24,000 nucleotides of DNA. Source: Allomuricauda sp. d1 (GTDB taxonomy: Bacteria; Bacteroidota; Bacteroidia; Flavobacteriales; Flavobacteriaceae). The stretch covers positions 564,244 through 588,243 of the forward strand of contig NZ_JBBUTK010000003.1 in NCBI RefSeq assembly GCF_039592695.1, written 5' to 3'. Shown here one piece after another: positions 436 through 24,000 of the stretch. The notes under the pieces were generated by a model that worked only from the letters and a program-made list of their open reading frames with translations, was not told where the DNA came from and searched no databases. Each line of letters starts with the position of its first letter. Position 1 is the stretch's first letter. The translations under genes and the position numbers were made by a program.

Positions 436-441
436 AAGCGT

Positions 442-2244: not shown

Positions 2245-2285
2245 AATTTGATGTTGGTCGAATGTTAAAGATAGTATTTTATCAA

Positions 2286-2293
2286 TATTTTTG
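2286..2293 (+). promoter_or_regulatory. candidate Bacteroidota sigma-A -7 box (TATTTTTG, fits TAnnTTTG) upstream of the TauE-like gene
   Basis: Exact match to the TAnnTTTG consensus, 16 nt upstream of the ATG at 2310, in the divergent intergenic region. Motif match only. Confidence 0.35.
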
Positions 2294-2309
2294 ACCTTCA
2301 GCCAGCACT

Positions 2310-3056
2310 ATGTCGACCATTGCTATTTCTACCGCCGCTTGGGCCATGGCCTATACCGCCATTTTTCTTTTGGGCATTTCAAAATCTGGTCTGAAAGGGC
2401 TCTCCATTTTTAATGTAACGCTATTGGCGCTTGCTTTCGGAGCACGGGAGTCTACAGGAATAATGATGCCGCTGCTTTTGGTGGGTGATGTATTTGCCGT
2501 GATTTATTACAACCGCCATACCCAATGGAAATATATCATACGCTTTATGCCATGGATGATTACCGGAATTCTGATCGGAGTATGGATTGGGAAAGAGCTG
2601 CCCGAAACCCAGTTCAAAATCGGAATGGTCATTGTCATTTTTATCAGCTTGGCCCTTTTGGTTTATTGGGATAGACGAAAATCAAAGTCTGTACCCACGC
2701 ACTGGAGCTTTGCGGGAAGCATCGGTGTTTTGGCCGGTATTTGCACCATGATCGGTAATTTGGCTGGGGCGTTTACCAACATTTTCTTTTTGGCCATGCG
2801 CCTGCCCAAAAATGAATTTGTGGGTACTGCGGCATGGCTGTTCTTGATTACCAATGCCTTTAAAATGCCCTTTCACATCTGGGTCTGGAAAACCATTTCT
2901 TGGGAAACCTTAATCATAGATCTAAAGTTGTTGCCCGCCATTTTTGCTGGTTTGGTCTTGGGTGTGTTCTTGGTAAAGATCATCAATGAAAAACAATACC
3001 GGCAGTTTGTCTTGGTGGTGACCGCGATTGGGGCTGTGGTGATATTGTTCAGGTAG
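2310..3056 (+). CDS. TauE/SafE-family (sulfite exporter-like) integral membrane protein
   Basis: 248-aa polytopic membrane ORF of the size and hydrophobicity pattern typical of the TauE/SafE family. The family call is from recalled resemblance, not a search. Confidence 0.6.
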   Translation: MSTIAISTAAWAMAYTAIFLLGISKSGLKGLSIFNVTLLALAFGARESTGIMMPLLLVGDVFAVIYYNRHTQWKYIIRFMPWMITGILIGVWIGKELPETQFKIGMVIVIFISLALLVYWDRRKSKSVPTHWSFAGSIGVLAGICTMIGNLAGAFTNIFFLAMRLPKNEFVGTAAWLFLITNAFKMPFHIWVWKTISWETLIIDLKLLPAIFAGLVLGVFLVKIINEKQYRQFVLVVTAIGAVVILFR

Positions 3057-3113
3057 TGCAAGCCTTTCTGTTTTGTTAAGTATTTGTTAATTCTAACTAT
3101 TTGAAATATCTTC

Positions 3114-3317
3114 ATGCCTGTGAATCAATCATTTATTCCGATGAAAGCCAAAGAAAATGTAACCGCTGCACGAATTCTTACCGCTGCCCTACTGTTCAGT
3201 ATTGCAGTTTTGGCCTATACAGTACATAGGGAGTATTCAGAGGAAATCTCAGATCACATTGAAAAAACTGTTGTTGAGCTTTTGCCTGATATGGAGAATA
3301 GTCTGGCAAAACTATAA
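3114..3317 (+). CDS. hypothetical small single-pass membrane protein
   Basis: 67-aa ORF with one hydrophobic helix (ARILTAALLFSIAVLAYTV). It sits in an otherwise empty gap, and no family is recognised. Confidence 0.35.
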   Translation: MPVNQSFIPMKAKENVTAARILTAALLFSIAVLAYTVHREYSEEISDHIEKTVVELLPDMENSLAKL

Positions 3318-3331
3318 TCTAAACAAAAATC

Positions 3332-3353
3332 AAGCCCCACTTTCGCAGGGCTT
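3332..3353. terminator. stem-loop between the small ORF and the convergent tRNA
   Basis: AAGCCC (3332-3337) pairs with GGGCTT (3348-3353) around a 10-nt loop. It lies between two convergent transcription units and has no strong U-tract. Confidence 0.3.
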
Positions 3354-3357
3354 ATAC

Positions 3358-3434
3358 TGGTGGTCCCACCTGGGCTCGAACCAGGGACCCCTTGATTATG
3401 AGTCAAGTGCTCTAACCAGCTGAGCTATAGGACC
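3358..3434 (-). tRNA. tRNA with CAT anticodon: elongator tRNA-Met or lysidine-modified tRNA-Ile2, not an initiator
   Basis: The reverse complement reads GGTCCTA-TA-GCTC-AGCTGGTTA-GAGC-A-CTTGA-CTCATAA-TCAAG-GGGTC-CCTGG-TTCGAGC-CCAGG-TGGGACC-A-CCA. This gives a full cloverleaf with a 7-bp acceptor stem (one G-U pair), a TPsiC loop TTCGAGC and an encoded CCA. Position 1-72 is paired and the anticodon stem has no GGG/CCC, which argues against an initiator. Confidence 0.9.
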
Positions 3435-3541
3435 CTGTCGCTTTAGCGACAAAACTCAAAATCCAAATCCCAAAATGAGAAATGTTTTTGAGGATGGCAA
3501 AATTAAGCTATTCTTCCGATATTTCTAATGGATTCCAATTT

Positions 3542-3970
3542 TTAAGCCCCCTCTCCTTTGGGGAGAGGGGCTTCTTGGCACAATTCCACCAACACCCCAT
3601 TTGTGGTTTTTGGATGCAAAAAAGCCACCAACTTATTGTCTGCTCCTTTTTTTGGGGTTTCGTTCAATATGGTGAACCCTTCCCCTTTTAATCTTTTGAT
3701 TTCACCCACAATATCATCCACAGCAAAGGCAACATGGTGTATGCCCTGCCCCTTTTTCTCCAAAAATTTTGCAATGGGGCTATCGGGGTTGGTCGCTTCC
3801 AGCAGTTCGATCTTATTGGGGCCATTTTTGAAAAAAGAGGTGCGTACCCCTTCGCTGGCCACTTCTTCTATTTTGTAATGGGGCCTGCCCAACAATTTTT
3901 CGAACAGATTGTTTGAGGCTTCCAAATCATTCACGGCAATACCGATGTGCTCTATTTTCTTCATTTGCAT
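3542..3970 (-). CDS. mce: methylmalonyl-CoA epimerase (VOC/glyoxalase-fold)
   Basis: MKKIEHIGIAVNDLEASNNLFEKLLG...GIHHVAFAVDDI...LHPKTTNGVLVELCQ is the typical epimerase sequence. The start is probably the third codon (ATG at 3964). The last 9 codons (APLPKGEGA) are encoded by a G/C hairpin. Confidence 0.8.
   Translation of the reverse strand: MQMKKIEHIGIAVNDLEASNNLFEKLLGRPHYKIEEVASEGVRTSFFKNGPNKIELLEATNPDSPIAKFLEKKGQGIHHVAFAVDDIVGEIKRLKGEGFTILNETPKKGADNKLVAFLHPKTTNGVLVELCQEAPLPKGEGA
3544..3573. repeat. G/C-rich palindromic hairpin (AAGCCCCCTCTCC-TTTGG-GGAGAGGGGCTT) overlapping the 3' end of mce
   Basis: CTCTCC (3551-3556) pairs with GGAGAG (3562-3567). The stem extends through CCC/GGG and AAG/CTT with one bulged C. 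It is probably a terminator or REP-like element. Confidence 0.6.
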
Positions 3971-4054
3971 GAAATTACTAAAGTTAGCCCCAATTTAACC
4001 ACTCCTAAATTATCAAATGATGAGTTTGGTCATTAATTGGCTTATTTTTGCAAG

Positions 4055-4447
4055 ATGGAAACGCAACGACAGAAAAAAATAGCGGGTATCTTACAGCAAG
4101 ACCTCGCCGAAATATTGCAACGGGCCGCCACAGATGGTGGTATGAAGGGCGTTCTTATCAGCGTTTCAAAGGTGAATGTGACCGCCGACCTTTCCATTGC
4201 AAAGGTGTACATCAGTATTTTTCCTTCGGATAAAGGGACAGAATTATTGGACGGCATCAAATCAAACGAACCCTTGATCAAACACCAGCTGGCCCAGCGC
4301 ACGCGCCATCAAATGCGCCGCGTACCAGAGCTGATATTTTATTTGGATGATTCTCTTGACTACATAGAAGACATCGAAAAATCATTGAAGGGCAATGAAA
4401 ATCCACTTGAAAATCGCGACCTTCTGGATAAGCGAAAGAAAAAATAG
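4055..4447 (+). CDS. rbfA: ribosome-binding factor A
   Basis: METQRQKKIAGILQQDLAEILQR...VSKVNVTADLSIAKVYISIF...RRVPELIFYLDDSL is classic RbfA. I prefer the ATG at 4055 over the upstream TTG at 4037 used by the ORF track. Confidence 0.85.
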   Translation: METQRQKKIAGILQQDLAEILQRAATDGGMKGVLISVSKVNVTADLSIAKVYISIFPSDKGTELLDGIKSNEPLIKHQLAQRTRHQMRRVPELIFYLDDSLDYIEDIEKSLKGNENPLENRDLLDKRKKK

Positions 4448-4449
4448 CT

Positions 4450-5658
4450 TTGAATTTTCCATTGTACATCGCCAAGCGGTATCTACGCTCTAAAAGCAGC
4501 CAAAATGCGGTGAACATTATCAATTTTATCACTTTTTTGGTGATTGTCATCGGGTCGGCAGCCTTGTTTATTGTTCTCTCTGCTTTTGCGGGATTGAAGA
4601 CTTTTAGTCTACAGTTTACCAACAGCTTTGACCCTGACCTAAAAGCGATGCCTGTGACCGGGAAGGTTTTTTCCCTTTCCCCACAAGAGGAAACCGAATT
4701 GGGCAACATTGGCGAGGTCACTCATTTTTCAAAAGAGCTGGAAGAGCGCGTATACCTCTCGTTTAAAGACAAGGGTGATATTGTTGATATCAAGGGGGTA
4801 GATGAGAATTATCGAAAGACCACAGGTATTGACAGTACGATATATTTTGGTAATTGGGGCGTGAATGGGCAGAGCGCGGTCATGGGTATCGGTATCAGTA
4901 ATTCACTGGGCATTCCTGTCGGCAACTATCAAAACCCCATGGTGGTCTTGGCCCCAAAACCGGGCAAAGGTTCTGTTTCATCGCAATCGCTCAATTCAAA
5001 GCCCTATACAGAACTGCCCCTCGTTTTGAGCGGTGTGTACGCCATTGAAGACAATCTCGACAAAAAGTATGTTTTTGTTTCCCTTCCTCTGGTTCAAAAT
5101 CTTCTGCAAAAAGACGATGGCGAGATTTCAGGCATTAATTTCAAACTGAACCCTAGTGTTGATTTAGAGGAAGTCCGCACAGCCATAAAAAACATCTTGG
5201 GCGAAAAAGTGGTTGTACTGAGTCGACGTGAGCTCAACGGGACACTATACCGTATGCTGAACACAGAAAATTTGGCCACCTACCTTATTTTTACATTGGT
5301 GCTCATTATCGCCCTGTTCAACGTGGTCGGGGCCATTATCATGATGATTTTGGACAAACAACAAAATTCAAAAACACTCTTCAGTCTGGGCACGACCATC
5401 AAAGAACTTCGAAGAATTTATTTTGTTCAGGGCGTTTTGGTGACCTCGTTGGGTGGGCTTATCGGTGTCATCATAGGTTCATTGCTGATTGTTTCACAAT
5501 TGGCTTTCGGCTGGCTTAAAATCACCCCTTCTCTGGCTTACCCAGTAGAATATGGTGTGATGAATGTTGTCATCGTTTTGGCAACGATTGTGGTGTTGGG
5601 GGTCATTTCTTCAAAGATTGCCAGTAGTCGGGTATCAAAAAAACTGGTGTCTTTCTAG
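4450..5658 (+). CDS. LolC/LolE-like FtsX-family ABC transporter permease
   Basis: 402 aa. The N-terminus FPLYIAKRYLRSKSSQNAVNIINFITFLVIVIG is typical of LolC/E-type permeases, followed by a large periplasmic loop and then 3 C-terminal TM helices (FtsX domain). The TTG start lies 3 nt after the rbfA stop. Confidence 0.75.
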   Translation: MNFPLYIAKRYLRSKSSQNAVNIINFITFLVIVIGSAALFIVLSAFAGLKTFSLQFTNSFDPDLKAMPVTGKVFSLSPQEETELGNIGEVTHFSKELEERVYLSFKDKGDIVDIKGVDENYRKTTGIDSTIYFGNWGVNGQSAVMGIGISNSLGIPVGNYQNPMVVLAPKPGKGSVSSQSLNSKPYTELPLVLSGVYAIEDNLDKKYVFVSLPLVQNLLQKDDGEISGINFKLNPSVDLEEVRTAIKNILGEKVVVLSRRELNGTLYRMLNTENLATYLIFTLVLIIALFNVVGAIIMMILDKQQNSKTLFSLGTTIKELRRIYFVQGVLVTSLGGLIGVIIGSLLIVSQLAFGWLKITPSLAYPVEYGVMNVVIVLATIVVLGVISSKIASSRVSKKLVSF

Positions 5659-6671
5659 GCGAATTGAAAATTTCCGAACTTTTCGAGAACCTCATCAAAA
5701 GCGGCGAACACATCAATTGCTTCGTCACTGGTCACCATTTTCATTCGGTATTCCTTAAAGTGTGGAATGCCCTTAAAATAGTTGGTATAATGCCTTCGGG
5801 TCTCGAACACGCCCAATTTTTCGCCCTTCCAATCGATGGCCATCTGCAAATGGCGACGGGCCGCCTCAACACGTTCTTCCATGGTTGGGGGGTCTAAGTG
5901 CCGGCCTGTTTCAAAATAATGTTTCACTTGGTTGAAGAACCAAGGGTTGCCAATACTTGCCCTGCCTATCATAGCACCATCAAGTCCGTAATCATCACGC
6001 ATTCTCATTGCAGCCTCAGGGGTATCCACATCGCCATTACCAAAAACGGGAATGTGCATTCTTTGATTGTTTTTGACCTCAGCAATAGGTTTCCAGTTAG
6101 CTTCACCTTTGTACATCTGAACCCTTGTTCTTCCATGAATGGAAATGGCCTGAATGCCCACATCTTGAAGGCGTTCGGCAACCTCAACTATTTTTATGGA
6201 ATTGTGGTCCCACCCCAAGCGGGTCTTTACGGTCACCGGAAGCTTGGTGCGCTTCACCATGGCCTCGGTCAATTTGACCATCAAGGGAATGTCGCGAAGA
6301 ATACCTGCCCCAGCATTTTTACAGACCACTTTTTTTACCGGGCAACCAAAATTGATGTCGATGATGTCTGGGTTGGATTTCTCAACGATATCAATGGCTT
6401 GCAACATCGAATCCATTTCGGCCCCAAAGATTTGGATGCCCACGGGGCGTTCTTTTTCGTAAATGTCCAATTTGATGACGCTTTTTGCGGCATCGCGAAT
6501 CAATCCTTCAGAAGAAATGAACTCGGTGTACACCACATCGGCCCCGTTCTCTTTGCAAAGCGCACGGAAGGGTGGGTCGCTGACATCTTCCATAGGGGCC
6601 AAAAGCAACGGAAAATCAGGCAGTTCTATGTTTCCTATTTTGGGCAAACCATTTTCTTTTTCGGACAGCAA
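5655..6671 (-). CDS. dusB: tRNA-dihydrouridine synthase B
   Basis: LLLAPMEDVSDPPFR...DINFGCPVKKV...VTVKTRLGW...ISIHGRTR...NGD are the Dus family catalytic motifs. Confidence 0.88.
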   Translation of the reverse strand: MLSEKENGLPKIGNIELPDFPLLLAPMEDVSDPPFRALCKENGADVVYTEFISSEGLIRDAAKSVIKLDIYEKERPVGIQIFGAEMDSMLQAIDIVEKSNPDIIDINFGCPVKKVVCKNAGAGILRDIPLMVKLTEAMVKRTKLPVTVKTRLGWDHNSIKIVEVAERLQDVGIQAISIHGRTRVQMYKGEANWKPIAEVKNNQRMHIPVFGNGDVDTPEAAMRMRDDYGLDGAMIGRASIGNPWFFNQVKHYFETGRHLDPPTMEERVEAARRHLQMAIDWKGEKLGVFETRRHYTNYFKGIPHFKEYRMKMVTSDEAIDVFAAFDEVLEKFGNFQFA

Positions 6672-6701
6672 AATTACAAAATTGCCAAAAAGAAGGGCAA
6701 A

Positions 6702-9119
6702 TCATTGATTTTCAAGTCGTTCACGTTCTTTCTTTTCAATGGTCCGCTCGTTGTCTTCGAGTCTGAAATTGCCGAAGTTATAGGTGAACCCAAACCTGAC
6801 GAACTGGGTCTCAGGCTGTGAAAAATAGAAATTGTCTTGGTTCAGGTATTGAGAGGTGTAGGTGCCGTTTGCTTTGCCCAAAAGGTCCTCTGCAGCAATG
6901 GATATTACGGCGCGGTTGTTCCAAAACGATTTTCTGAGGCCAAGCGTCAGATTCGTGGTAGGTGATTGTACGTACGAACCGAAGAGATATTTTGAAAAAT
7001 GGGTGAACGTGACCTCTCCTGTAAAACTTCCATCTTCTGAAAGAGTGAGGTAATTGGCCAAGTATACGTAAAAGCCCTCAATGCTATTAGTCGCGGGGAT
7101 GTCGCCACTCTCCACTGCCAAAAAAGTTTCATCCTCGTGAAAAATAGAAGTATAGGCGTACAAAAACCAAGGATTGGCAATACTCTTGCTCAATGTAAAG
7201 TCAATGCCGTATGATGTGCTTTCCAAAACATTTTGCTTCAACTGTCGCAGCACCAACAAATTGTTGTCTTGAAATACCAAGTCGCTGATGTAGTTGCCAT
7301 TATCGCGATAATACAGATCAAAGAAAAACTCGTTGTTCAGGGTATAGTTGAGGTTGAAGTTATTGGTGAAGTTGGGCTGTAACCTTGGGTTACCGTCCTC
7401 AAAATCATTTTCGTTATAGAAAAATCGAAACGGATTCAAATCATTGTACCTTGGCCGTGCCACGCCCCTATCGTAATCAAATGAAAAGCTATGGCTTTCT
7501 GATGCCGTGAACAGCACATTCAAAGAAGGAAAAACACTCAAAAAATCTTGTGAATTGACCACGTCAAGGGTGCGTGAAATGCCTTCGGCATTGGTTTGTT
7601 CGCCCCTGACCCCGGCTTTGACCGACCATTTTTCCCAACTCTTCAAGATGCTCACATAGGCCGCATAAATCGATTCATTGTACTCAAAATCATCAGACAG
7701 TGAGCTATCGACTACATCGCTGTTGCCCAAAAAATTGGAATACAAAATGCTGTTCTGAGAATCGATAGTCGAAACTTTCAGGCCTGTCTCCAACGATGTT
7801 GTTCCAAATGGAAAGTACAAATCGGCCTGGCCGGTCAAAATTTGAATGTCTTGATTTGCATCGGTCCGAAACCCAAAGCTTCTTGAAAAACCTCCCGTTG
7901 CATCAAAATAATCTGAAAGAATGTTTTGTGTGGATGCTTTGCCATAATCGGTGTAATGCGCATTGAGCGACAATTGGGCGCCTTCTTTTTTGAATTTGTG
8001 CATATAGTTCACATCAAAAGCGAGGTTGGTGCGGTCGCGTCTTCCTGAATTGTCGGTCACAAAGGTGGAATCCAACTGGTTTTGCCCGTCGAGTATTACA
8101 GCGTCCAGATTTCTTCGCCATTCTTGATCTGGATTAAAAGACAGGTTTGATGTCAGATTCAGGCTGTTTCTACCGTCAATATCATAATCAGCTATAACTG
8201 TAGCGGTATGGATCTGCGAATCGGTAATCTGTTCATCATCTGTCGACCATCTTGAAAAAACATCGTTGCTGTCATTGATAAAATTGATGCCCTTGTCGAC
8301 CTGTAGAGACTCTTTTTTTGGATTGAAAGAATAGTTGCCAAAAAGGCTCAGCTTGTCTGTTTTGAAATAATGGCTCGTGCCGATGACATATTTGGGAAAT
8401 ATGGCTTGGGTAAAACTCCCGTTGACACTGCCCTTGTAGCCCGGTATGATGTTCTTGCTGGTAACAATGTTCAATATCGGTCCGCCCTCGGCATCGTAGC
8501 GCGCAGGTGGGTTGGCAACCACTTCAACGGATTTGATGTTCGTTCCCGATAATCCTTCCAGTAAGTCTTTCACTTCCTGACCTGACAATTGCACTTTTCT
8601 GTCGTTTAGATATACCGTGGCCGATTGCCCCTTGATCTGAAGGTCTTCTTGATTGACAATGACCCCAGGTGTGCTTCTCAAAATATCCCAAGAACTGCCT
8701 TGTGAAACGACCGTGTTCTCGACGTTGAAGACCAATCGATCCGAAAGTCGTTCGAGGGTCGGGCGCTTTGCGGTCACCACCACTTCATCCAAAGTCTGGG
8801 CAGCTGCGGGAATGATCAATGCGCCCAGCGATATATCGTTCTTGACGTCCAAAGCCAAGGGTTTTGAAGCACGCCCCACATAACTGGCCTGCAACAGATA
8901 GAGGCTGGGGGCGATGTCTTCAAGATTAAAAATGCCCTGCTCATCAGCTGAAGTACCCTGCACAAATGTGGAATCTGTAGCGTTCAACAACAAGATATTG
9001 GCAAAAGCCACTACCTCGTTACTGTCGTCAATTACTTTGCCCTTTATGGAGAAGGTCTGGGCAGAAATGCTAGAAATGGCAAAAGCCGCTAATACGAAAC
9101 AGCGCAGCAGTGGTTTCAT
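6702..9119 (-). CDS. outer-membrane beta-barrel / TonB-dependent-receptor-like protein with N-terminal carboxypeptidase-regulatory-like domain
   Basis: Signal peptide (MKPLLRCFVLAAFAISSISAQ), a CarbopepD_reg-like segment (IKGKVIDDSNEVVAFANILL), a plug-like region (LDEVVVTAKR...VYLNDRKV) and a long beta-strand-patterned C-terminus ending FGFTYNFG... Confidence 0.75.
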   Translation of the reverse strand: MKPLLRCFVLAAFAISSISAQTFSIKGKVIDDSNEVVAFANILLLNATDSTFVQGTSADEQGIFNLEDIAPSLYLLQASYVGRASKPLALDVKNDISLGALIIPAAAQTLDEVVVTAKRPTLERLSDRLVFNVENTVVSQGSSWDILRSTPGVIVNQEDLQIKGQSATVYLNDRKVQLSGQEVKDLLEGLSGTNIKSVEVVANPPARYDAEGGPILNIVTSKNIIPGYKGSVNGSFTQAIFPKYVIGTSHYFKTDKLSLFGNYSFNPKKESLQVDKGINFINDSNDVFSRWSTDDEQITDSQIHTATVIADYDIDGRNSLNLTSNLSFNPDQEWRRNLDAVILDGQNQLDSTFVTDNSGRRDRTNLAFDVNYMHKFKKEGAQLSLNAHYTDYGKASTQNILSDYFDATGGFSRSFGFRTDANQDIQILTGQADLYFPFGTTSLETGLKVSTIDSQNSILYSNFLGNSDVVDSSLSDDFEYNESIYAAYVSILKSWEKWSVKAGVRGEQTNAEGISRTLDVVNSQDFLSVFPSLNVLFTASESHSFSFDYDRGVARPRYNDLNPFRFFYNENDFEDGNPRLQPNFTNNFNLNYTLNNEFFFDLYYRDNGNYISDLVFQDNNLLVLRQLKQNVLESTSYGIDFTLSKSIANPWFLYAYTSIFHEDETFLAVESGDIPATNSIEGFYVYLANYLTLSEDGSFTGEVTFTHFSKYLFGSYVQSPTTNLTLGLRKSFWNNRAVISIAAEDLLGKANGTYTSQYLNQDNFYFSQPETQFVRFGFTYNFGNFRLEDNERTIEKKERERLENQ

Positions 9120-9208
9120 TCATCGTTTGGGTTGTAGGCAAATCTAACGATTTATTTGCGAGGCTATTGTTAAAGCAATAAAAGACCCCTCTGGGCCTTC
9201 AAAAGAAG

Positions 9209-9216
9209 TATATTTG
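9209..9216 (+). promoter_or_regulatory. candidate -7 box TATATTTG (TAnnTTTG) upstream of lepA
   Basis: Exact consensus match 8 nt upstream of the lepA ATG, which would imply a very short leader. Motif match only. Confidence 0.3.
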
Positions 9217-9224
9217 CAGTTCTT

Positions 9225-11021
9225 ATGAAAAAGATTCGAAATTTCTGCATTATTGCCCATATCGACCATGGTAAAAGCACGTTGGCCGACCGATTATTGG
9301 ATTATACAGGTTCTGTGACCGAACGCGAAAAAAAAGAGCAATTGCTCGACAGTATGGACTTGGAGCGTGAACGCGGCATCACCATCAAGAGCCATGCGAT
9401 TCAGATGGAATACCAATACGATGGCGACACCTATATCTTGAATCTTATCGATACTCCCGGGCACGTTGATTTTTCGTATGAGGTATCCCGTTCGATTGCG
9501 GCCTGCGAAGGGGCACTATTGGTGGTCGATGCAGCCCAGAGTATTCAGGCACAGACCATTTCAAACCTGTATTTGGCTTTGGAAAATGATCTCGAAATCA
9601 TTCCTGTGCTGAATAAGGTGGATCTGCCCAGTGCGAATCCTGAAGAGGTGACCGATGATATTGTTGATTTATTGGGATGCAAGCCCGAAGAGGTCATTCC
9701 TGCAAGCGCAAAAACCGGTATCGGTATAGATGACATTTTGAAAGCAATCATTGAACGAATTCCGGCACCAGAAGGAAATGAAGAGGGGCCACTACAAGCC
9801 TTGGTCTTTGATTCAGTCTACAATCCCTTTCGGGGTGTCGAAACTTATTTCAGGGTGCTTAACGGATCTATCAAAAAAGGCCAGAAAATCAAGTTTATGG
9901 CCACGGGCAAAAGCTATTTTGCCGATGAGATCGGCACCTTGAAGTTGACACAACATCCCAAACAAGAAATAAAGACCGGTGATGTAGGCTATTTGATCAC
10001 AGGCATCAAAGATGCGAGGGAGGTTAAGGTTGGGGATACCATCACTTTGTCAGAAAACCCGGCTACAGCGGCCATTTCTGGGTTTGAAGATGTAAAGCCG
10101 ATGGTTTTTGCGGGAATTTATCCTGTTGATACCGAGGATTATGAAGAGCTGCGCTCTTCGATGGAAAAACTGCAACTGAACGATGCTTCTTTAGTGTTCA
10201 CTCCCGAAAGCAGTGCGGCTCTTGGGTTCGGGTTCCGCTGTGGGTTTTTGGGGATGCTGCACATGGAAATCATTCAAGAGCGTTTGGAGCGCGAGTTTGA
10301 TATGACCGTCATCACCACTGTGCCCAACGTGAGCTATCATGCTTTCACTACCAAAGACCCAGAAGAAGTGGTCACTGTAAACAACCCTTCCGATCTGCCC
10401 GACCCATCAACACTTGACCGCGTTGAAGAACCCTACATCAAGGCCACTATCATTACCAAGTCTGATTTTGTCGGCAATGTAATGTCGCTCTGTATTGACA
10501 AACGTGGCCAGATTACCAATCAGACCTATCTGACCACTGAGCGCGTTGAGCTTACTTTTGATATGCCCCTCGCCGAAATCGTTTTTGATTTTTACGACCG
10601 CCTAAAAACAGTTTCGAAAGGCTATGCGTCTTTTGACTATTCCCCCATTGGGATGCGTACCTCAAAATTGGTTCGGGTAGACATCCTTCTGAATGCGCAA
10701 CCCGTAGATGCCCTTTCTGCTCTGGTACATTTTGACAATGCCCATACGATAGGCAAGAGAATGTGCGAAAAACTAAAAGAACTCATTCCCAGACAGCAAT
10801 TTGACATCCCTATTCAGGCAGCCATTGGCTCAAAAATAATCTCTCGTGAGACCATCAAGGCCTTGCGAAAAGACGTAACGGCAAAATGTTATGGGGGCGA
10901 TATTTCACGAAAGAGAAAACTGCTCGAAAAACAGAAAAAGGGTAAAAAGCGTATGCGTCAGGTCGGTAATGTTGAGATTCCACAACAGGCCTTTATGGCG
11001 GTGCTCAAGTTGAACGATTAA
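9225..11021 (+). CDS. lepA: translation elongation factor 4 (LepA)
   Basis: [34 protein letters not shown] and a C-terminal LepA-specific domain ending [10 protein letters not shown]. The identification is unambiguous. Confidence 0.97.
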
Positions 11022-12874
11022 TCTGCGACTTCTTCTTTGCTGGCCAATATGTCAACATTAAACATTTTACCGAGATAGACCAATTTATACCCTTCATCAA
11101 TATCGGTAAATTCTTTGCTGAAAGATGAAATGATTTTTAAATCTCCCTGCTTGTCTTTTAAAAAAATGGGGATTATATGTTCGTCTGCTTTGGTAATCTC
11201 GATAAGGCCATCATATTGTTCTTTGTCCTTAAGTTCAATTTCATTGATGGCTGGATATTTTCTAACGGCTTCCGTCAGTTTGATAAAATCATCGGTATGG
11301 GAAAAGAGCCCCTCTTCCGGATTGTTTTCGGGGTTGTTCATTTCGTCTGTGTTGACCAGCCTAAAGGCCCCATTTTCACCAAATTGCTTTTTGAACTTTT
11401 CAATGGCAAACTTGTTGATATCCGAATTGCCCGTCAGGGCCATCAAGTAGCCCATATCGTTCAATTCAATATTATCGGTCAACGTGTCTGAATAGATGTC
11501 GGCTGCAATGGCCTCGACTCCCAATTTTTTTGCTTTTTCAACATTGGTCTGGTTATTGTCGATAAGTACCACATGGCGCTTGTTTTTCTTCAGATAACCT
11601 GCAATCAGCCTTGAGACTTTTGAGGCGCCTATTATCAAAATGCCCTCTGACTTTGTTAAAAACACTCCCACTAACCGGGCAAAAAGCCTAGCAGTAGTAG
11701 CGTTGAGAAGCACGGTGCCCAATACGACCATAAACACCAGTGGGGTAATGTATTCTGCCCCGGGCTCGCCTTTTGCAAGCAGTTTAGAACCGAAAAGCGA
11801 TGCAATACCGGCAGCCACGATACCCCTTGGCCCCACCCAGCCGATAAACATTTTTTCGTTAAGCTTCAGATTCGAACCTTGTGTGCTCAAAAACACCCCA
11901 AGAGGCCGAATCAGAAATACAATGACAAGAAAAAGGGCAGCGGTCTTCCAGTTGTAGATGAGCTGCATGTCTGAAATATCAATGTTCGCGGCAAGAAGTA
12001 TAAAAAGAATGGATATCAATAGAACGCTCAACGATTCTTTAAAATAGAGCAGTTCTTTAAGGTTTGGCAGGTCTATGTTCCCCATGACCATTCCCATGAC
12101 CACTACCGCAAGTAGGCCCGATTCATGCGCAAAGAGATCTGATTCAACGAAAACCAACAAGACCACCGATAATGAAACCACATTCATTAGATAATGGGGT
12201 ATCCAGTTTTTCTTGATGACAAAGGCGAGGCCGTGGGCAAAGGTGAAGCCGAAAGTGAAGCCGAAAAGCAATATTTTTCCGAACTCTATCAAAGCCGTTT
12301 TTGTAAAGGCACTGCCTTCGCCAACACTGATAAATTCAAACACCAAAACTGCTACTAACGCCCCGATGGGGTCAATCAAGATGCCTTCCCATTTTAGCAC
12401 TGCCGAAACATCTTTTTTGAGTGGTATGTTACGAAGAATGGGTGTAATTACTGTGGGCCCTGTAACGATAATTAAGGCAGAGAACAAAAACGATATCTGC
12501 CACGACAAGTCAAAAATGTAATGTGCTGCGATACCTGCCCCAAAAAAAGTAACCAATGTGCCAATGGTAATCAACTTTGTGATTACGGGGCCAACATTGG
12601 CAATTTCAGAACGTTTTAAGGTCAACCCGCCTTCAAAAAGTATGATACTGATTGCAAGTGACACAAAATAATAGAGGCCATCACCAGGAAAAAGACCTTT
12701 TTTACCATTCCAAATGGGCTCAATGAGCTTGCTGCCATCTGCGGTATAAAGCGTTGCGATTGGCCCGACCAAGAGCCCGATCAAAATCAGGGGTAAGATT
12801 GCGGGCAACTTCAATCGCCAAGCGACCCATTGTGCGATGATTCCAAGTATAATGATTCCCGCTAATTCGAGCAT
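11018..12874 (-). CDS. cation:proton antiporter (Na+/H+ exchanger family) with C-terminal TrkA-N/RCK-like domain
   Basis: About 12 TM helices, followed by a Rossmann-like segment [31 protein letters not shown] place the start at ATG 12874 ([11 protein letters not shown]). The 27 upstream codons of the ORF track (to 12955) look non-coding. Confidence 0.8.
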
Positions 12875-13027
12875 GGTGGTATTTTTTCGAAATTTACAGT
12901 TTTCTTTAAAATATCCTTGCCCATATCCGGGCTTTCTGAATTTGTTAAAATACAAATAATAAAACGGTGTATTATAACCATTTGCGGTACAGTTTTCTTA
13001 TTTTGCGCATCCTTTTGCCCATTTTGA

Positions 13028-17569: not shown

Positions 17570-18397
17570 GTGCCAAAAAATAAAATCATACCGTACAATC
17601 CCAAGCTAAAGGAATATGCCCGTCAATTGCGTAAAAACAGCACCTTGTCAGAGACATTGCTTTGGCAAAGCATAAAAAACAGGGCGCTTGGGGTGCAGTT
17701 TCATCGTCAAGTGCCCCTACTTGAATATATTGTCGATTTTTATTGCCATGAAATTAAACTGGCCATCGAAATAGACGGTGATTCACATGAATACCGTTAC
17801 GAACAAGATGCTAAACGTCAAGGTGAGTTGGAAAAAAGAGGGGTTGAATTCATCCGGTTTTCAGACAATACGGTTAAAAATGATATGTTCAGCGTGCTGT
17901 TGGCGTTGGAGGAAAAGCTTAAAAATCTTGTGGAAAACACCCCCCTTGATCCTAACTCAAAGGGGGGGTCAAGAATAGCTTCACCAACATCCCCCTTCCT
18001 CCCCCCTCAAGGGGGGAATAAGTTTCCAAAAAAAGAAAGGCTGAAATCACAAAAGCTTATTGAACAGGTTTTTTTGGATGGAAAGGCCGTGACCCAATTC
18101 CCCATAAAACTTATCTATCTCAAACATGGGCTGATAGCGTCGCCCACCGTACAGGCCGGTTTTGTCGCCCCAAAGAAAAACTTTAAAAGTGCCGTCAAGC
18201 GCAACCGTATCAAACGCCTGCTCAGAGAGACGTACCGCCTCAATAAGCATACCCTTTTTAACAACATAGAGGGAAATTATGCGTTGATGATTTTATATCT
18301 TGGGAAGGAGTTGCCACAGTACAAGGCCATAGAGGAAAAAATGGTGGCCGTGTTGGGCGCATTCATAAAAAAAGTCTCAAATGAAGAACGTACGTAA
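17570..18397 (+). CDS. rnpA: single 275-codon ORF: N-terminal DUF559 (Vsr-like endonuclease-fold) domain fused in frame to the RNase P protein component
   Basis: Residues 1-~120 (IPYNPKLKEYARQLRKNSTLSETLLW...YIVDFYCHEIKLAIEIDGDSH...GVEFIRFSDNTV) are typical DUF559. From ~18020 onward (FPKKERLKSQKLIEQVF...FKSAVKRNRIKRLLRE) the sequence is typical RnpA. There is no stop codon between the two parts and no ATG at the usual RnpA start. The only in-frame alternative start nearby is GTG at 17930. Confidence 0.75.
   Translation: MPKNKIIPYNPKLKEYARQLRKNSTLSETLLWQSIKNRALGVQFHRQVPLLEYIVDFYCHEIKLAIEIDGDSHEYRYEQDAKRQGELEKRGVEFIRFSDNTVKNDMFSVLLALEEKLKNLVENTPLDPNSKGGSRIASPTSPFLPPQGGNKFPKKERLKSQKLIEQVFLDGKAVTQFPIKLIYLKHGLIASPTVQAGFVAPKKNFKSAVKRNRIKRLLRETYRLNKHTLFNNIEGNYALMILYLGKELPQYKAIEEKMVAVLGAFIKKVSNEERT
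17940..18016. repeat. G/C palindromes on the right flank of the DUF559 domain: CCCCCCTTGA-TCCTAAC-TCAAAGGGGGGG and CCCCCC-TCAA-GGGGGG
   Basis: Hairpins at 17940-17968 and 18001-18016. They lie inside the ORF and encode the linker TPLDPNSKGG...LPPQGG. Confidence 0.6.
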
Positions 18398-20016: not shown

Positions 20017-21084
20017 CTACAACGCGTCTAAAGGACTGGTGATCTTTGAAAGGCTTCTGGGGGTGACCTTGGTGTACACCTGGGTCGTTTTTATAGAGTT
20101 ATGCCCCAACAATTCTTGAATAAAGCGCATATCGGCCCCAGATTCCAGCAAATGGGTGGCATAGCTGTGGCGAAGGCCGTGAATGCCGATAGTTTTATGA
20201 ACACCCGCCTTTCTCATGGCCGTTTTAAAGACATTTTGCACACTGACCTTGGCATATTGACCCCCATATTGCCCTTCCAACAGATAATTCTGAGGACGGT
20301 ACTCTAGGTAATACCTTCTCAATAGCGGTAAAAGACTTACGGGAAGCGGTACATACCTGTCCTTTTTTCCTTTGGCACCTCGAATGTGCACCATCATACG
20401 CTCACTGTCGATGTCACCAATCTTCAGGTTTACCACTTCTGACACCCGTAGCCCCATGCCATAGGCCAGTTGTAGGGCCACAAGATGTTTTATGTTTGAT
20501 GTTACCGAGAGTATTCTCTTGACCTCATTCTTGCTCAGTGCCTTTGGCAGCACTTGGGGTTTTTTGGGCCTGGGAATGTCAAAAAACATTTTTGGCCGAT
20601 GCAGCACCTGTTCATAATAAAACTTAATGGCATTGATTTTACCATTAAGTTTTCGTTCAGCCATCTGCTCTTTTTGCACACAATACAGAAAATAGTCTTT
20701 TAGCCGCTTGGGGGTCATTTTTTCAACAGGAAAATCTTTTAAAAGCAGTAGCAGATGGTAGAACTCGCTTAAATATTGTTTGATGGTGTTCTGACTGTAC
20801 TGTTTTAGTTTCAATTGTTCATGCATTGAAACATACGCTTGGCGATTGACTTGGTTCACTTTTGACAGTTTTGAACCGATTGTGGGTTTGGGCCCAAGTT
20901 GAAGTGCCTTTCGCACGCTAGGCAAGTCTGGCAGGTACCATGCTTTTTTGGTCTTGCTCCATTTTGCAGAAGGAAATCTTGACCTCAACGCCTCTTGCAG
21001 ATTTTTATCAAACACAAAGCGAACCTGAATGATCGGTCGACCTCGATGCTGGCCAAAGGAGAAGTGATATTTTGAAAAATCCAC
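20017..21084 (-). CDS. tyrosine-type site-specific recombinase (XerC/D-like catalytic domain with a Bacteroidota-type N-terminal domain); not a canonical IntI
   Basis: Catalytic residues are present: GLRVSE (Arg I), HGLRHSYATHLL (His-x-x-Arg) and LLGHNSIKTTQVYTKV (His/Tyr). There is a SAM-like core-binding domain (TIKQYLSEFYHLL). The N-terminus HRGRPIIQVRFVFD...KWSKTKKAWYLP is seen in many Bacteroidota integrases. GTG start at 21084. The spacing between GAKGKKDR and HGLRHS is too short to hold the IntI-specific additional domain. Confidence 0.9.
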   Translation of the reverse strand: MDFSKYHFSFGQHRGRPIIQVRFVFDKNLQEALRSRFPSAKWSKTKKAWYLPDLPSVRKALQLGPKPTIGSKLSKVNQVNRQAYVSMHEQLKLKQYSQNTIKQYLSEFYHLLLLLKDFPVEKMTPKRLKDYFLYCVQKEQMAERKLNGKINAIKFYYEQVLHRPKMFFDIPRPKKPQVLPKALSKNEVKRILSVTSNIKHLVALQLAYGMGLRVSEVVNLKIGDIDSERMMVHIRGAKGKKDRYVPLPVSLLPLLRRYYLEYRPQNYLLEGQYGGQYAKVSVQNVFKTAMRKAGVHKTIGIHGLRHSYATHLLESGADMRFIQELLGHNSIKTTQVYTKVTPRSLSKITSPLDAL

Positions 21085-21235
21085 TTAGGTGTTTTGTATA
21101 TCTTCTTTTCAAAGATATATGTTTTATATACAAAATGCCCAACACAATGATGTATTTATATTTTGCGTTATTATTGCGATACAAAAGAATATAAGTACTT
21201 TAGGGTGGGTTATATAAAACTACACCTATTTACGT
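21085..21235. promoter_or_regulatory. attI-like / divergent promoter region with nested palindromes
   Basis: TTTTGTATAT (21092-21101) pairs with ATATACAAAA (21126-21135), with inner ATATCTT (21098-21104) / AAGATAT (21112-21118). There is an imperfect inverted repeat GTATTTATATTTTG (21152-21165) / CAAAAGAATATAAGTAC (21182-21198). The region ends at the first G|TTAGGC junction. Confidence 0.5.
21110..21117 (-). promoter_or_regulatory. candidate -7 box (TATCTTTG on the minus strand) for the recombinase gene
   Basis: Exact TAnnTTTG match on the minus strand, 25 nt upstream of the GTG start at 21084, embedded in the palindrome. Motif match only. Confidence 0.3.
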
Positions 21236-21247
21236 GTTAGGCAACAT

Positions 21248-21985
21248 ATGAGACAACTTAACATTCACGAATTGGAAAGCAAAACGCACGACTATTTTTT
21301 GGACGTGGAATATGCCCAGCATAATGACGTGAAAAATAAGTTAACTCAACTAATGAATTTTTTGAGCAGCCAAGATATATCCAAGAACATTCTAGAGAGG
21401 ATAAAAGAAGATTACAATGATTTATATCAAAAACTTGACCCCCTTAATGACCAATCCCCAGAAAGAACCAAAAGAGATATTATAGAACAACTTTTAACAC
21501 CAGACCACCAAGGAGCCTTTGGATATTTTCTCATTGAAAAGAAGTTCAAAGAGCCAAGAAAAGTTTCTCAACATTATATCGATTTATCCTGGAAGTGGTA
21601 CAGTCGAGGACATAATTATAATGAACAACAAGATGGTTTTAATTTCTATTTTTTAAAACCTTTTAAAGAGTTATTCGACTGGTATTTATCTGAAAGTCAA
21701 ACCGAAAAGGAATCGGACTTTTTTTCATATAAAAGTCAAGAAAAAGTCTTTGAAAAATTAGATAACCTTGAGGAAATGCTAACAAAACAAGGATTTGGAC
21801 AAGGGATAATCTTTAATGAAATTGAGGAACTAAAGGAATTGACTAAAAAGCTGAATAAAAAAAATTGGAGTGAAATCATTAAAGGTAAGTTCGTGGACTT
21901 AGCCTTAGGAGGTATTCTAACAAAAGAAGCTGCAATCAAAGCAATTGAATTCCTAACTGGAACGGAACTGAATTTATTAAAATAA
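21248..21985 (+). CDS. cassette 1 ORF: hypothetical protein, 245 aa, no family recognised
   Basis: Clean ATG-to-TAA ORF that starts 12 nt after the junction. It is AT-rich, rich in Lys, Glu and Asn, and predicted soluble and helical. No motifs I can name. Confidence 0.7.
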   Translation: MRQLNIHELESKTHDYFLDVEYAQHNDVKNKLTQLMNFLSSQDISKNILERIKEDYNDLYQKLDPLNDQSPERTKRDIIEQLLTPDHQGAFGYFLIEKKFKEPRKVSQHYIDLSWKWYSRGHNYNEQQDGFNFYFLKPFKELFDWYLSESQTEKESDFFSYKSQEKVFEKLDNLEEMLTKQGFGQGIIFNEIEELKELTKKLNKKNWSEIIKGKFVDLALGGILTKEAAIKAIEFLTGTELNLLK

Positions 21986-21989
21986 ATAC

Positions 21990-22120
21990 GTTGCCTAACA
22001 ATGGCTATAATTCAGCTTTGCCCTCTGCCCTACTTGAAAATCTATATCTTTAAATCGGCTGGATTTCGAAGCTGGAAAATCCCGTTGGGATTTCCCAAGC
22101 CGAAATCATAGCCGAGACCG
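21990..22120 (+). repeat. attC-like recombination site of cassette 1 (~131 bp imperfect hairpin)
   Basis: GTTGCCTAAC (21990-21999) is the reverse complement of GTTAGGCAAC (21236-21245). GGCTATAATTCAGCTT (22003-22018) pairs imperfectly with AAGCCGAAATCATAGCC (22097-22113). An inner hairpin lies at 22074-22095. The site ends GAGACCG|TT. Confidence 0.7.
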
Positions 22121-22143
22121 TTGTGGGTAATGTTGACCAACCA

Positions 22144-22980
22144 ATGGAAATAAACGAACAAGCAAAATATATTGACCATTTTTTAAGAGAATTATATAAT
22201 TCATCTTTTGCTACATCATTAGCAATGGGAATTGAAATGAAACAATTACCAAGTCAACAGAACAAAGAGAAATTTAAGACATTAGAATACATCTTGGAAG
22301 AATTAGAATTGGTCGAATTTGTGCTTGGAAGAGATAATTCAACTTTGAGCGGACAATGTGAATATCACATAAGTGGGAAAGGTCGTGAGCTGGTCGAAAG
22401 AAACGAATCAAGTATTGGATTACTTTTAGAAAGAGAAATTCAAAATGTGACAAAAAATAATCCTTTGTTTGACGACAAAGAATGGGATAAATATTATGAC
22501 CGACTTCTTGAAAAAAGAGCTGACCAAGCAGATTTTTTTCTTGATATGATAATTGAGAAGAAACTCATAAATCTTGACAAATCTACATTGAGAAAATATT
22601 TTAAAGAATGGTTCAAAGAAAATCAAGAATTCGATTTACAAATAAAGAATGGAGATTTGGCAATAGAAGATGGTGATTTACAAACTGTACCTGACTTCAG
22701 CGAAGAAAACATACCTGAATTTATTAAATGGTTTCAGGAAAAAGGAAATGAATTTATGGACTTTCTAAAAGAAAAAGGGTTAAGTGTTCAAGAAAACTCA
22801 AAAGAACAGATTATTAACCAAGGAAATCTTATAATAAACAAGGATTCTAAAATTAAAACTCAATCCATTGGAGAAGAAAAAGAACAAAAAGAATCGAATT
22901 GGAATAAAACAAACGTTATCATAGCTTTAGTAGTTGGAATAGCGACAATTATAGGTGTGATTTGGCAAATAATAGGATAA
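22144..22980 (+). CDS. cassette 2 ORF: hypothetical tail-anchored membrane protein, ~278 aa
   Basis: The ORF is open from GTG 22123, which lies inside the junction core, but ATG 22144 (MEINEQAKY) is more plausible. There is a single C-terminal TM helix, NVIIALVVGIATIIGVIWQIIG. AT-rich, and no family recognised. Confidence 0.7.
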   Translation: MEINEQAKYIDHFLRELYNSSFATSLAMGIEMKQLPSQQNKEKFKTLEYILEELELVEFVLGRDNSTLSGQCEYHISGKGRELVERNESSIGLLLEREIQNVTKNNPLFDDKEWDKYYDRLLEKRADQADFFLDMIIEKKLINLDKSTLRKYFKEWFKENQEFDLQIKNGDLAIEDGDLQTVPDFSEENIPEFIKWFQEKGNEFMDFLKEKGLSVQENSKEQIINQGNLIINKDSKIKTQSIGEEKEQKESNWNKTNVIIALVVGIATIIGVIWQIIG

Positions 22981-22987
22981 AAAACAC

Positions 22988-23117
22988 TACCCACAACAAC
23001 GTGTATAGCTCATTGCGGCTCTAATGGTTATTTGAATCTATTTTCCTACAAACAATCTTTACATTCTTCGGAATAAAACGTACCTTAAATCCCGCAACGA
23101 AGCCATACACAATACCG
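22988..23117 (+). repeat. attC-like recombination site of cassette 2 (~130 bp imperfect hairpin)
   Basis: TACCCACAAC (22988-22997) is the reverse complement of GTTGTGGGTA (22120-22129). GTGTATAGCTCATTGCGG (23001-23018) pairs with CCGCAACGAAGCCATACAC (23092-23110). An inner ATTC-TTCG-GAAT hairpin lies at 23063-23074. The 3-nt versus 6-nt internal loop is the same as in site 1. Confidence 0.7.
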
Positions 23118-23470
23118 ATGATGTCGAATACGCCTGCGGCGTACTTTTGCTGCACTGCTGGCGCAGTCACCGCACCAAAAGCGAGTCGACATCATCGCCG
23201 CGCTATGCCAGATTGCAAAGACCGCAGGATAAGGGACATTCTTGACAATATCGCCGCAACGGCTCAACTACTCGACATATCGGGACGCTATATGCAATCT
23301 GGTCGACTGATTTTATTCCCAATACCGCAAAATCCACAAGGAAACGTCCGCTGGTGCGGACTCCTTGGCGAACAATGCCGCAGGGTAAACCCGATGCCAA
23401 TCCCAGCGGCATTGTTGAAAGGATTTTGCTATATTTCCATAAAATCCGCCGGACTTCACATAGCGCGGCG
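23118..23470 (+). other. cassette 3: GC-rich, repeat-dense unit without a convincing ORF (possible ncRNA, decayed cassette or stack of recombination-site remnants)
   Basis: It is bounded by junctions G|ATGATGTCGA (23117) and GCGCGGCG|TTGTGG (23470). Several internal inverted and direct repeats are listed in the findings. The composition is clearly more GC-rich than both neighbours. Confidence 0.55.
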
Positions 23471-23487
23471 TTGTGGTTAATTTTCCA

Positions 23488-24000
23488 ATGAAAGGACTGC
23501 TTAAAACAATTTCGGAAAAAGCTATTGAACTTCAGGATTTTTCATATTCCGAAGAGCAAATCCAGCATAAATGGCTAGGGACAAAACCCGTAACGGAAAA
23601 TGAACTTGAATCAATTGAAAAAAGGTTGGGAATTCAATTACCAGAGGACTATATCAATTTTCTGAAAATAACCAATGGATTTTCAGCTCCAAACCTTGTG
23701 GAACCGACTTTTGAGCCTTTTTGGAAAATTGACTTTCTTAAAGAAGTGGACAACTTCATAATCGAAGTTTGGAAGAAAAATGGACTTACCGAAATTGGAA
23801 AAAATCTTGAAAGCAGCATTATAGTCGGAGGAATTGAAGAAGAACAATACTTTTTACTAATTCCACCCGAAAAGGCAAATGACAACTGGAAATATTGGAA
23901 ATTCAGTTCATGGCAACCAGGGGAGGACGAATATGAAAACCTTCAGGACTATTTTGAAAAGGTTCTGGAATTTACACTTGACGAACTAGAACATAAATAA
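23488..24000 (+). CDS. cassette 4 ORF: SMI1/KNR4 (SUKH-1) family protein, the family used as immunity proteins of polymorphic toxin systems
   Basis: ELESIEKRLGIQLPEDYINFLKITNGF is the hallmark SMI1_KNR4 N-terminal motif, and the size (~170 aa) fits. ATG at 23488, 18 nt after the junction. The TAA stop occupies 23998-24000. No toxin gene is adjacent. Confidence 0.85.
   Translation: MKGLLKTISEKAIELQDFSYSEEQIQHKWLGTKPVTENELESIEKRLGIQLPEDYINFLKITNGFSAPNLVEPTFEPFWKIDFLKEVDNFIIEVWKKNGLTEIGKNLESSIIVGGIEEEQYFLLIPPEKANDNWKYWKFSSWQPGEDEYENLQDYFEKVLEFTLDELEHK

Follow-up and report, generated by a model that had tools for sequence, protein, structure and literature searches.

A SUKH-1 gene on a cassette of an integron-like array in Allomuricauda sp. 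d1

The 24,000-nucleotide (nt) stretch of Allomuricauda sp. d1 DNA considered here (contig NZ_JBBUTK010000003.1, positions 564,244 to 588,243 of the forward strand; hereafter the window) closes with an open reading frame (ORF) on the + strand, running from the ATG at 23488 to the TAA at 23998–24000, which encodes 170 amino acids (aa) and whose product is, as predicted from its sequence, a cytoplasmic single-domain protein of the SUKH-1 (SMI1/KNR4) family. The best explanation for this gene as a whole, to which we assign a probability of roughly 0.6, is that it encodes an orphan immunity protein and travels as a mobile cassette in an integron-like array built by recombination at DNA hairpins. 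It is nearly certain that the gene sits on a mobile cassette (about 660 bp) which comes fourth in a chromosomal array of this kind, and the role in orphan immunity, proposed by analogy, has about an even chance of being correct.

The SUKH-1 protein and the boundaries of its cassette

The original prediction had assigned the protein to the SMI1/KNR4 family from the nucleotide sequence and its translation, and this assignment was borne out by profile hidden Markov model (HMM) searches against Pfam, in which the product of 23488–24000 matched PF09346 (SMI1_KNR4) with 46.4 bits (E-value 7.5e-12, cut-off 25.4) and PF14568 (SUKH_6) with 28.9 bits (cut-off 27), and narrowly failed for PF14567 (SUKH_5; 26.3 bits, cut-off 27). 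The AlphaFold2 model, computed with 20 homologues as input (pLDDT 85), agrees with this result: the best matches found by Foldseek in the PDB were BF1740 Smi1/Knr4 (3d5p), yeast Knr4, B. subtilis YobK (2prv) and FBXO3, so that all top neighbours of the predicted structure are SUKH proteins (probabilities 0.9–1.0 for BF1740, Knr4 and YobK and 0.54–0.66 for FBXO3, with TM-scores of only 0.37–0.55). The sequence similarity to the solved members is marginal (E-value 2e-4 for 3d5p and 0.07 for YobK), and the N-terminus, as read from the sequence, contains no signal peptide.

Homologues could be detected in 163 cases, in Flavobacteriia and Sphingobacteriia, and the genomic loci of 80 of them were fetched. 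The family is well conserved across these two classes, with a mean column identity of 66% and 35 invariant columns. A profile search of 1.84 billion representative sequences extended the set to 1260 relatives, many of which are fused to other domains. Two types of fusion were observed among the relatives P0285, P0291 and P0247, one with an N-terminal lipoprotein signal and MORN-like repeats followed by the SUKH domain (~425 aa), the other with the SUKH domain followed by a C-terminal domain of ~230 aa (~400 aa in total). The extra domains of the fused proteins have no match in Pfam and therefore offer no clue to function.

The SUKH cassette (23471..24000 within the window, + strand) begins with TTGTGGTTAATTTTCCA, and its 5' end and the whole ORF are inside the window. 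The junction falls between G 23470 and TT 23471 in a GTTGTGG box, the ATG starts 18 nt past the G and the gene is alone in its cassette, all as first described. At 16 other loci, spread over about a dozen marine genera, the SUKH gene has the same leader and is bounded by GTTGTGGTTAA upstream and TTAACCACAAC downstream (in alternative extents cGTTGTGGTTAATTTGAAAAATG and AAAACTAACCACAAC, the downstream string being given also as AACCACAAC), and the sequences flanking these boundaries are unrelated to each other. The genera include Aequorivita, Seonamhaeicola, Kordia, Winogradskyella, Psychroserpens, Tenacibaculum, Xanthomarina, Aquaticitalea, Mesoflavibacter and Maribacter. Cassettes from different genera are 75–98% identical at the nucleotide level and have therefore moved recently. 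The window copy and its closest relative, a copy from a metagenome (L092; 86% identity in nucleotides and 84% in amino acids), form a separate allele. The metagenome copy is a complete cassette of ~660 nt, with an attC site of 140 nt (88.7 bits) that starts inside the stop codon. For the window copy the corresponding attC is expected at or near the stop codon, past position 24000, with the sequence TAACCACAAC and its end at CG|TT about 140 nt further on.

The first 20 nt of the cassettes share a common layout, in which the G|TT is followed by about 6 variable bases and then by a conserved M-A-T-T-T (21237–21256, 22121–22140 and 23471–23490 in the window, and the related loci). Position +10 of the cassette is an A in 99% of 143 sites, and next come an A-rich tract and often the ATG, the commonest location of which is +19. 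This leader could belong to the recombination site or act as a signal for expression.

Hairpin sites, recombinase and element X

Two further cassettes were delineated by eye, each of which starts just past the G of a GTT and closes with an imperfect inverted repeat of ~138 nt that has the form of an attC site (R''-L''...L'-R' with invariant AAC/GTT). Cassette 1 (21237..22120, + strand) carries an ORF of 245 aa (21248–21985), with R'' GCCTAAC at 21993–21999 and the G of R' at 22120, and cassette 2 (22121..23117, + strand) an ORF of ~280 aa that starts at 22123 or 22144 and ends at 22980, with R'' CCACAAC at 22991–22997 and the G of R' at 23117. The start of each is complementary to its own R'' box (TTAGGC to GCCTAA in cassette 1, TTGTGG to CCACAA in cassette 2).

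A covariance model of these sites was built from a seed alignment of 11 sequences, 10 from other genomes and one from the window. In the consensus fold, an AAC/GTT stem and a bulged stem of ~14 bp, with compensatory changes in 11 of the 18 pairs, are accompanied by an unpaired spacer. In the window the model matches exactly two sites, attC1 at 21990–22130 (94.9 bits), which belongs to the training set, and attC2 at 22988–23127 (65.6 bits, E-value 5e-13), which lies outside the training set and is therefore independent. In total, 154 sites were identified in 85 loci (E-value <= 1e-3), the densest array having 23 in 20 kb, all of them either in the orientation of the SUKH gene or on the other strand from a divergent recombinase; the Pedobacter loci and the named Flavobacterium loci yielded none with the model. 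In an alignment of 122 sites, 92.7% of the cells are paired, versus 21–35% when the partner is slid; compensatory changes occur in 14 of the 18 pairs, and double changes number 313 versus 84.5 in shuffled alignments.

The array is headed by a gene for a tyrosine recombinase related to XerA and IntI (20017..21084, − strand, 355 aa), which is transcribed divergently from the cassettes. The protein matches the Phage_integrase (133 bits) and SAM_4 families of Pfam, and in NCBIfam it scores 205 with XerA_Arch (cut-off 220), 197 with the integron integrase model TIGR02249 (cut-off 265; a match in two pieces) and 118 with PRK15417 (cut-off 435). The sequence has the catalytic R, K, HxxR, H and Y motifs, the best PDB match is the XerA-like protein from Pyrococcus (4a8e), and an N-terminal extension of ~85 aa is specific to the family. 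Residues ~211–246 of VchIntIA (2a3v) have no counterpart in the recombinase, i.e. the IntI-specific additional domain is missing. In integron integrases this domain binds the extrahelical bases of attC. More than 7800 homologues of the recombinase were found, the top ones being 66–85% identical and nearly all 355 aa long (from Maribacter, Winogradskyella, Allomuricauda and others). Among the relatives examined, recombinases of this degree of identity are always divergent from arrays of this type (e.g. in L085–L087); the closest one (L089) is located at the end of a contig, its array being lost.

Between the recombinase gene and cassette 1 lies an attI-like region (21085..21236, + strand), which ends with TATTTACGTG|TT, placing the crossover between G 21236 and T 21237. 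An alignment with three relatives revealed the conserved sequence TATATAC..TATATACGWG|TT. In two Winogradskyella strains (L085 and L086, positions 1–10000 of both loci), the recombinase, the attI site and the core flank are identical and the sequences part right after GTTG, which fixes the point of crossover and demonstrates the turnover of cassettes. The two arrays are wholly different: one contains an HpaII restriction-modification system and small ORFs, the other a beta-lactamase, a DUF1963 protein, a TonB receptor, Fur, MerT/HMA and a P-type ATPase, with metal-resistance genes coming behind the first two. A different arrangement occurs in Flavobacteriales ALC-1 (L008), where a recombinase of 376 aa, only 44% identical to that of the window, is encoded at 6707–7837 (+ strand), 5' of the array and co-directional with it. 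It is followed by an attI-like segment (7838–7915) with two palindromes, ATATATAACATATGTTGTATATAT and TATATAGAACATATGTTCTATATA, before ATTG|TTACCCAAC. Since the array behind this recombinase uses the same class of attC as the window, at least two lineages of recombinases serve the pool of cassettes. The ALC-1 array adjoins the core genes for YebC, pterin-4a and an RmlD-like protein, as do the arrays of the divergent type in Winogradskyella.

The proposed status of the SUKH gene as the cargo of a cassette, linked to a recombinase-associated array, emerges from these data much stronger than it could be put at first, with identical boundaries in 16 genomes and with covarying attC hairpins, 154 in number. 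Were the junctions ordinary intergenic repeats or terminators, the SUKH gene would be a normal chromosomal gene and not a mobile one; such a view could draw on the recombinase not being a canonical IntI and on the location of the 3' site of the window copy outside the window, but it is at odds with the same boundaries amid different neighbours in 16 genomes, with the complementarity of every cassette start to its own R'' box, with the strong covariation within the attC sites and with the different arrays of strains that have the recombinase and the flanks in common. The cassette evidence effectively refutes it.

What had been described as a single unit, cassette 2, turned out to be two, as attC2 ends at 23117 and is followed by a separate segment, termed here element X (23118..23470, + strand). 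It is 353 nt long, ORF-less and highly structured, has a GC content of ~50% and a non-canonical G|AT core. It starts with ATGATGTCGA, contains an internal R''-like sequence TCGACATCATC at 23186–23196 and ends with CATAGCGCGGCG at 23459–23470. The core is changed on both sides, with G|ATGATG paired to CATCATC, i.e. GAT/ATC replaces GTT/AAC. Element X is placed right after the ACCG that ends attC2 (23117) and directly before the TTGTGG of the SUKH cassette, and its excision restores the canonical ACCG|TTGTGG. The calculated fold is far more stable than that of shuffled controls, with z-scores of -8.1 for the whole region of attC2 and element X as DNA (22985–23485) and of -7.5 and -8.6 for the two strands of 23113–23487 as RNA. 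Rfam has no match for the element, and a relaxed scan of 22950–23520 gave only hits at the level of chance; no match was found in a plasmid collection or in the first 84 loci.

A scan with a 22-mer of element X detected at least four further copies on two metagenome contigs. One of these (L095) carries three copies within 3.3 kb (1–52, 2126–2486 and 3236–3283); those that were read begin right behind the G of an ordinary attC, and an ordinary cassette comes next. The copy on the other (L096, ~819–1189, − strand) directly follows an attC by its coordinates. The ends of these copies are 86–94% identical to those of the window copy, and the middle is unalignable. Element X therefore appears to be a recurrent cargo-free cassette, which could be a selfish element, a promoter or the source of an RNA. 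An insertion of the IS110/IS1111 type and a remnant of a group II intron were considered and dismissed, as element X has no ORF, lies exactly at the G| crossover, possesses an R''/R'-like pair of its own and recurs behind other attC sites. An ORF of 120 aa at 23118–23480, inside the element, was likewise rejected as a gene: it has no family match in Pfam or NCBIfam and was taken as non-coding.

The bases that follow the G differ between the partner sites (TTGTGG, ATGATG, TTACCC and TTAGGC), hence the sites have no overlap homology and a classical two-strand exchange of the Xer type seems unlikely. The exchange of a single strand on a folded hairpin is favoured, because it fits both the differing bases and the compensatory changes in the attC stems. 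We infer that the recombinase would make its cut after the G of attC hairpins folded from single-stranded DNA and exchange one strand, as integron integrases do. The platform is integron-like in its working, yet it lacks the IntI domain by which integrons are defined, and is not a classical integron.

Cassette cargo and the function of the SUKH protein

The original prediction had extended the immunity hypothesis to the neighbours of the SUKH gene, a suggestion that gained no ground: the proteins of cassettes 1 and 2 have no match in Pfam, NCBIfam, PADLOC or PHROGs. The cassette 1 protein belongs to a family with 42–90% identity among Flavobacteriaceae, a 90% identical homologue being found in another context in Croceitalea marina, and its AlphaFold2 model, a confident one (pLDDT 88.8), is all-alpha and is matched significantly by no PDB entry. 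The cassette 2 protein has a C-terminal transmembrane helix.

A broader view of the cargo was obtained from 95 cassette ORFs of the related arrays. The 25 best-supported families, beyond which there are 40 weaker ones, include two or three beta-lactamases, two Rce1-like proteases, an HpaII restriction enzyme, AbiGi, ParD, Gp49, GmrSD and several DUFs, together with a WapI-like immunity protein and a bacterial EndoU toxin domain (one of each). Of 129 cassettes, 25, or about one in five, lack an ORF of at least 50 aa. The idea that these are interbacterial defence arrays is borne out only in part: among the best-supported families the cargo is mixed, and the arrays do not look dedicated to immunity. 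In the array of Aequorivita marisscotiae (CP122379, positions 1–13000; L002), ORF-less cassettes of ~395 nt are repeated many times, and two genes for IS110-family transposases are found, one of which sits immediately behind the R'' box in the attC of the SUKH cassette, as an insertion.

No toxin gene is adjacent to the SUKH gene in the window, as had been stated; the upstream units are two ORFs without matches and one ORF-less element. The same outcome was obtained for the homologues, none of the close ones that were checked being located beside a toxin domain. The genes upstream of the homologues are purD, a PhzF-like gene, yaaA, ppc, a GH92 gene, mfd or unrelated cassettes, and within arrays the upstream neighbours encode a protein with a weak DUF3997 match, an outer-membrane beta-barrel, an APH kinase or products without matches.

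Most SUKH proteins of bacteria that consist of a single domain are associated with loci for polymorphic toxins, as reported by Zhang et al. (2011). The immunity reading is derived from this knowledge of the superfamily and from the orphan SUKH proteins of the rAID arrays of Bacteroidales, which were shown experimentally to neutralise a T6SS (type VI secretion system) effector (PMC12247911; bioRxiv 10.1101/471110). By analogy with these orphans, the SUKH protein of the window may bind and block a toxin domain that acts in the cytoplasm and is delivered by competing Bacteroidota. It shares its Pfam family and fold with YobK and with the immunity protein I2 of the Bacteroidales T6SS, which are also small and cytoplasmic, and differs from them in that no cognate toxin is linked to its family anywhere that was checked. 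Of the proposal made initially, the family, the cassette cargo and the absence of an adjacent toxin gene are retained, and the expected toxin-linked homologue did not materialise.

Several findings speak against the overall explanation. On the side of function, a toxin gene is upstream of the SUKH homologues in none of about 80 loci; the gene is found in fixed synteny after purD in 16 Pedobacter genomes, in most of them with a terminator-like hairpin and a T-run past the stop codon, and after a PhzF-like gene in five Flavobacterium genomes; the mean column identity of 66% is unusually high for a protein engaged in an arms race; and the cargo of the arrays, judged by the best-supported families, is mixed and not immunity-rich. 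On the side of the platform, the window stops on the stop codon of the SUKH gene, leaving the 3' attC of its cassette beyond the end, and the alignment in which the attC covariation was assessed had been fitted to the model. Moreover, the recombinase falls below the cut-offs for integron integrases and has no domain for the extrahelical attC bases, so that hairpin recombination by this enzyme is no more than presumed.

The synteny in Pedobacter and Flavobacterium, the strong conservation and the lack of linked toxins would all be expected of cassette cargo with a broadly useful, cell-intrinsic role, in which the protein would be a general SUKH protein-binding or regulatory module, e.g. for a host enzyme or an envelope factor, and its gene would sometimes be fixed in the chromosome and sometimes traded. 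The many relatives fused to other domains point the same way, as do yeast Knr4 and FBXO3, which are SUKH proteins without an immunity function. We nonetheless regard such a role as the less probable one, for bacterial single-domain SUKH proteins are reportedly linked for the most part to toxin loci, and a rapid transfer of the cassette between genera suits a conflict gene better than a housekeeping gene. The functional validation of the rAID orphans (PMC12247911) is a further point against it. Participation in a conflict between phage and host, as a component of defence or anti-defence and not of interbacterial immunity, is improbable. The protein has a weak partial match to the PADLOC candidate PDC-M40A (E-value 1e-5, residues 33–65) and another to phrog_25556 (E-value 4e-4), restriction-modification, AbiGi and GmrSD cassettes occur in the related arrays, and chromosomal integrons are known to store anti-phage systems (bioRxiv 10.1101/2024.07.02.601686); but both matches are limited to the conserved N-terminal motif of SUKH and are far weaker than those to the SUKH families, and the cassette contains no partner gene. 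Orphan immunity accordingly remains our preferred reading of the SUKH protein.

Relationship to known systems and chromosomal surroundings

Among the closest known systems are the rAID-1 arrays of Bacteroidales, which are defined by a recombinase that shares 44% identity or more with BF9343_RS08045 of B. fragilis and is located 5' of at least two genes and co-directional with them, by a GC content of the array of at most 41% and by repetitive intergenic motifs (Ross et al. 2019, bioRxiv 10.1101/471110). The array in the window resembles them in its phylum (Bacteroidota), in its conserved repetitive intergenic motifs 'reminiscent of integrons' and in the SUKH orphan among its cargo. Its GC content is likewise within the 41% limit and below that of the recombinase and the host: windows over the cassette ORFs range from 0.275 to 0.355, reaching 0.38 where attC1 is included, against 0.36–0.48 for the recombinase gene and 0.38–0.535 for the flanking S41 peptidase gene. 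The orientation, however, is different, the recombinase being encoded on the − strand and the cassettes on the + strand; the co-directional layout of rAID-1 was encountered only in ALC-1, with a different recombinase. Further differences are that the hosts here are marine Flavobacteriaceae, that the cargo, among its best-supported families, is mixed rather than dominated by immunity genes, and that the I2 orphans of rAID have two SUKH domains and evolve fast, whereas the SUKH protein of the window has one domain and is highly conserved.

The similarity to classical integrons, and in particular to the sedentary chromosomal ones (e.g. the superintegron of Vibrio), extends to the divergent recombinase, the attI site and the array of co-oriented and mostly single-gene cassettes. 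The sites are imperfect palindromes of the attC type, in which the cores are AAC/GTT, crossover takes place after the G, a spacer is left unpaired and the stems are bulged; the cassette starts complement their own R''; the arrays are large and variable between strains; ORF-less cassettes occur; and the cargo includes toxin-antitoxin, restriction-modification and resistance genes. In contrast to classical integrons, the recombinase has no IntI additional domain, remains under both of the integron cut-offs of NCBIfam and possesses an extra N-terminal domain of ~85 aa, and the attC sites are long (135–226 nt). Apart from In0 elements, surveys with IntegronFinder identified in Bacteroidetes just a single complete integron, that of Salinibacter (PMC9024848). 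A literature search revealed no description of cassette arrays in Flavobacteriaceae, which is not proof that none exists.

Tentatively, and with somewhat less than an even chance of being right, the window may be interpreted as the end next to attI of an array from a second lineage of integrons, one that is widespread among Bacteroidota and has gone largely unrecognised. Its Xer/XerA-like recombinases, without the IntI domain, would capture cassettes via folded attC hairpins of ~138 nt, with a single strand exchange after the G; the rAID arrays of the gut would be one specialised branch, elements such as X, with their co-varying non-canonical core, would be regulatory modules or cargo-free units that multiply within arrays, and the SUKH cassette a widely traded immunity allele. 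The status of rAID as such a branch would explain how rAID arrays acquire their genes, the mechanism of their biogenesis being still open according to their describers (PMC12247911). Gut Bacteroidales are already known to have orphan SUKH immunity genes in arrays linked to recombinases, and the gene in the window would be a new member of this group. The context of the array matters more, as it supplies rules of construction at the level of single bases (hairpin sites, crossover after the G, cassette starts complementary to their own R'') from a phylum where the standard integron surveys find almost nothing. If folded hairpins are indeed handled without the IntI domain, the view of that domain as the key innovation of integrons changes, and marine Flavobacteriaceae would possess a large, unsurveyed pool of mobile cassettes with resistance, restriction, toxin-antitoxin and immunity genes.

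Elsewhere, the window contains housekeeping genes, including lepA, rnpA, the S41 peptidase gene and transporter genes, hence the element is chromosomal; a scan of the whole window with Rfam at gathering thresholds yielded only a tRNA. The S41 peptidase gene is the core gene that abuts the recombinase. In Flagellimonas aequoris (L052, 8321–10516), a SUKH homologue with 49% identity is located directly after this same core gene, at a locus with no attC or recombinase nearby. Finally, a single long ORF at 17570–18397 of the window combines a DUF559 endonuclease-like domain (residues 12–116) with an RNase P protein domain (residues 152–260), and probably represents either two adjacent genes or an insertion of a DUF559 sequence upstream of rnpA.

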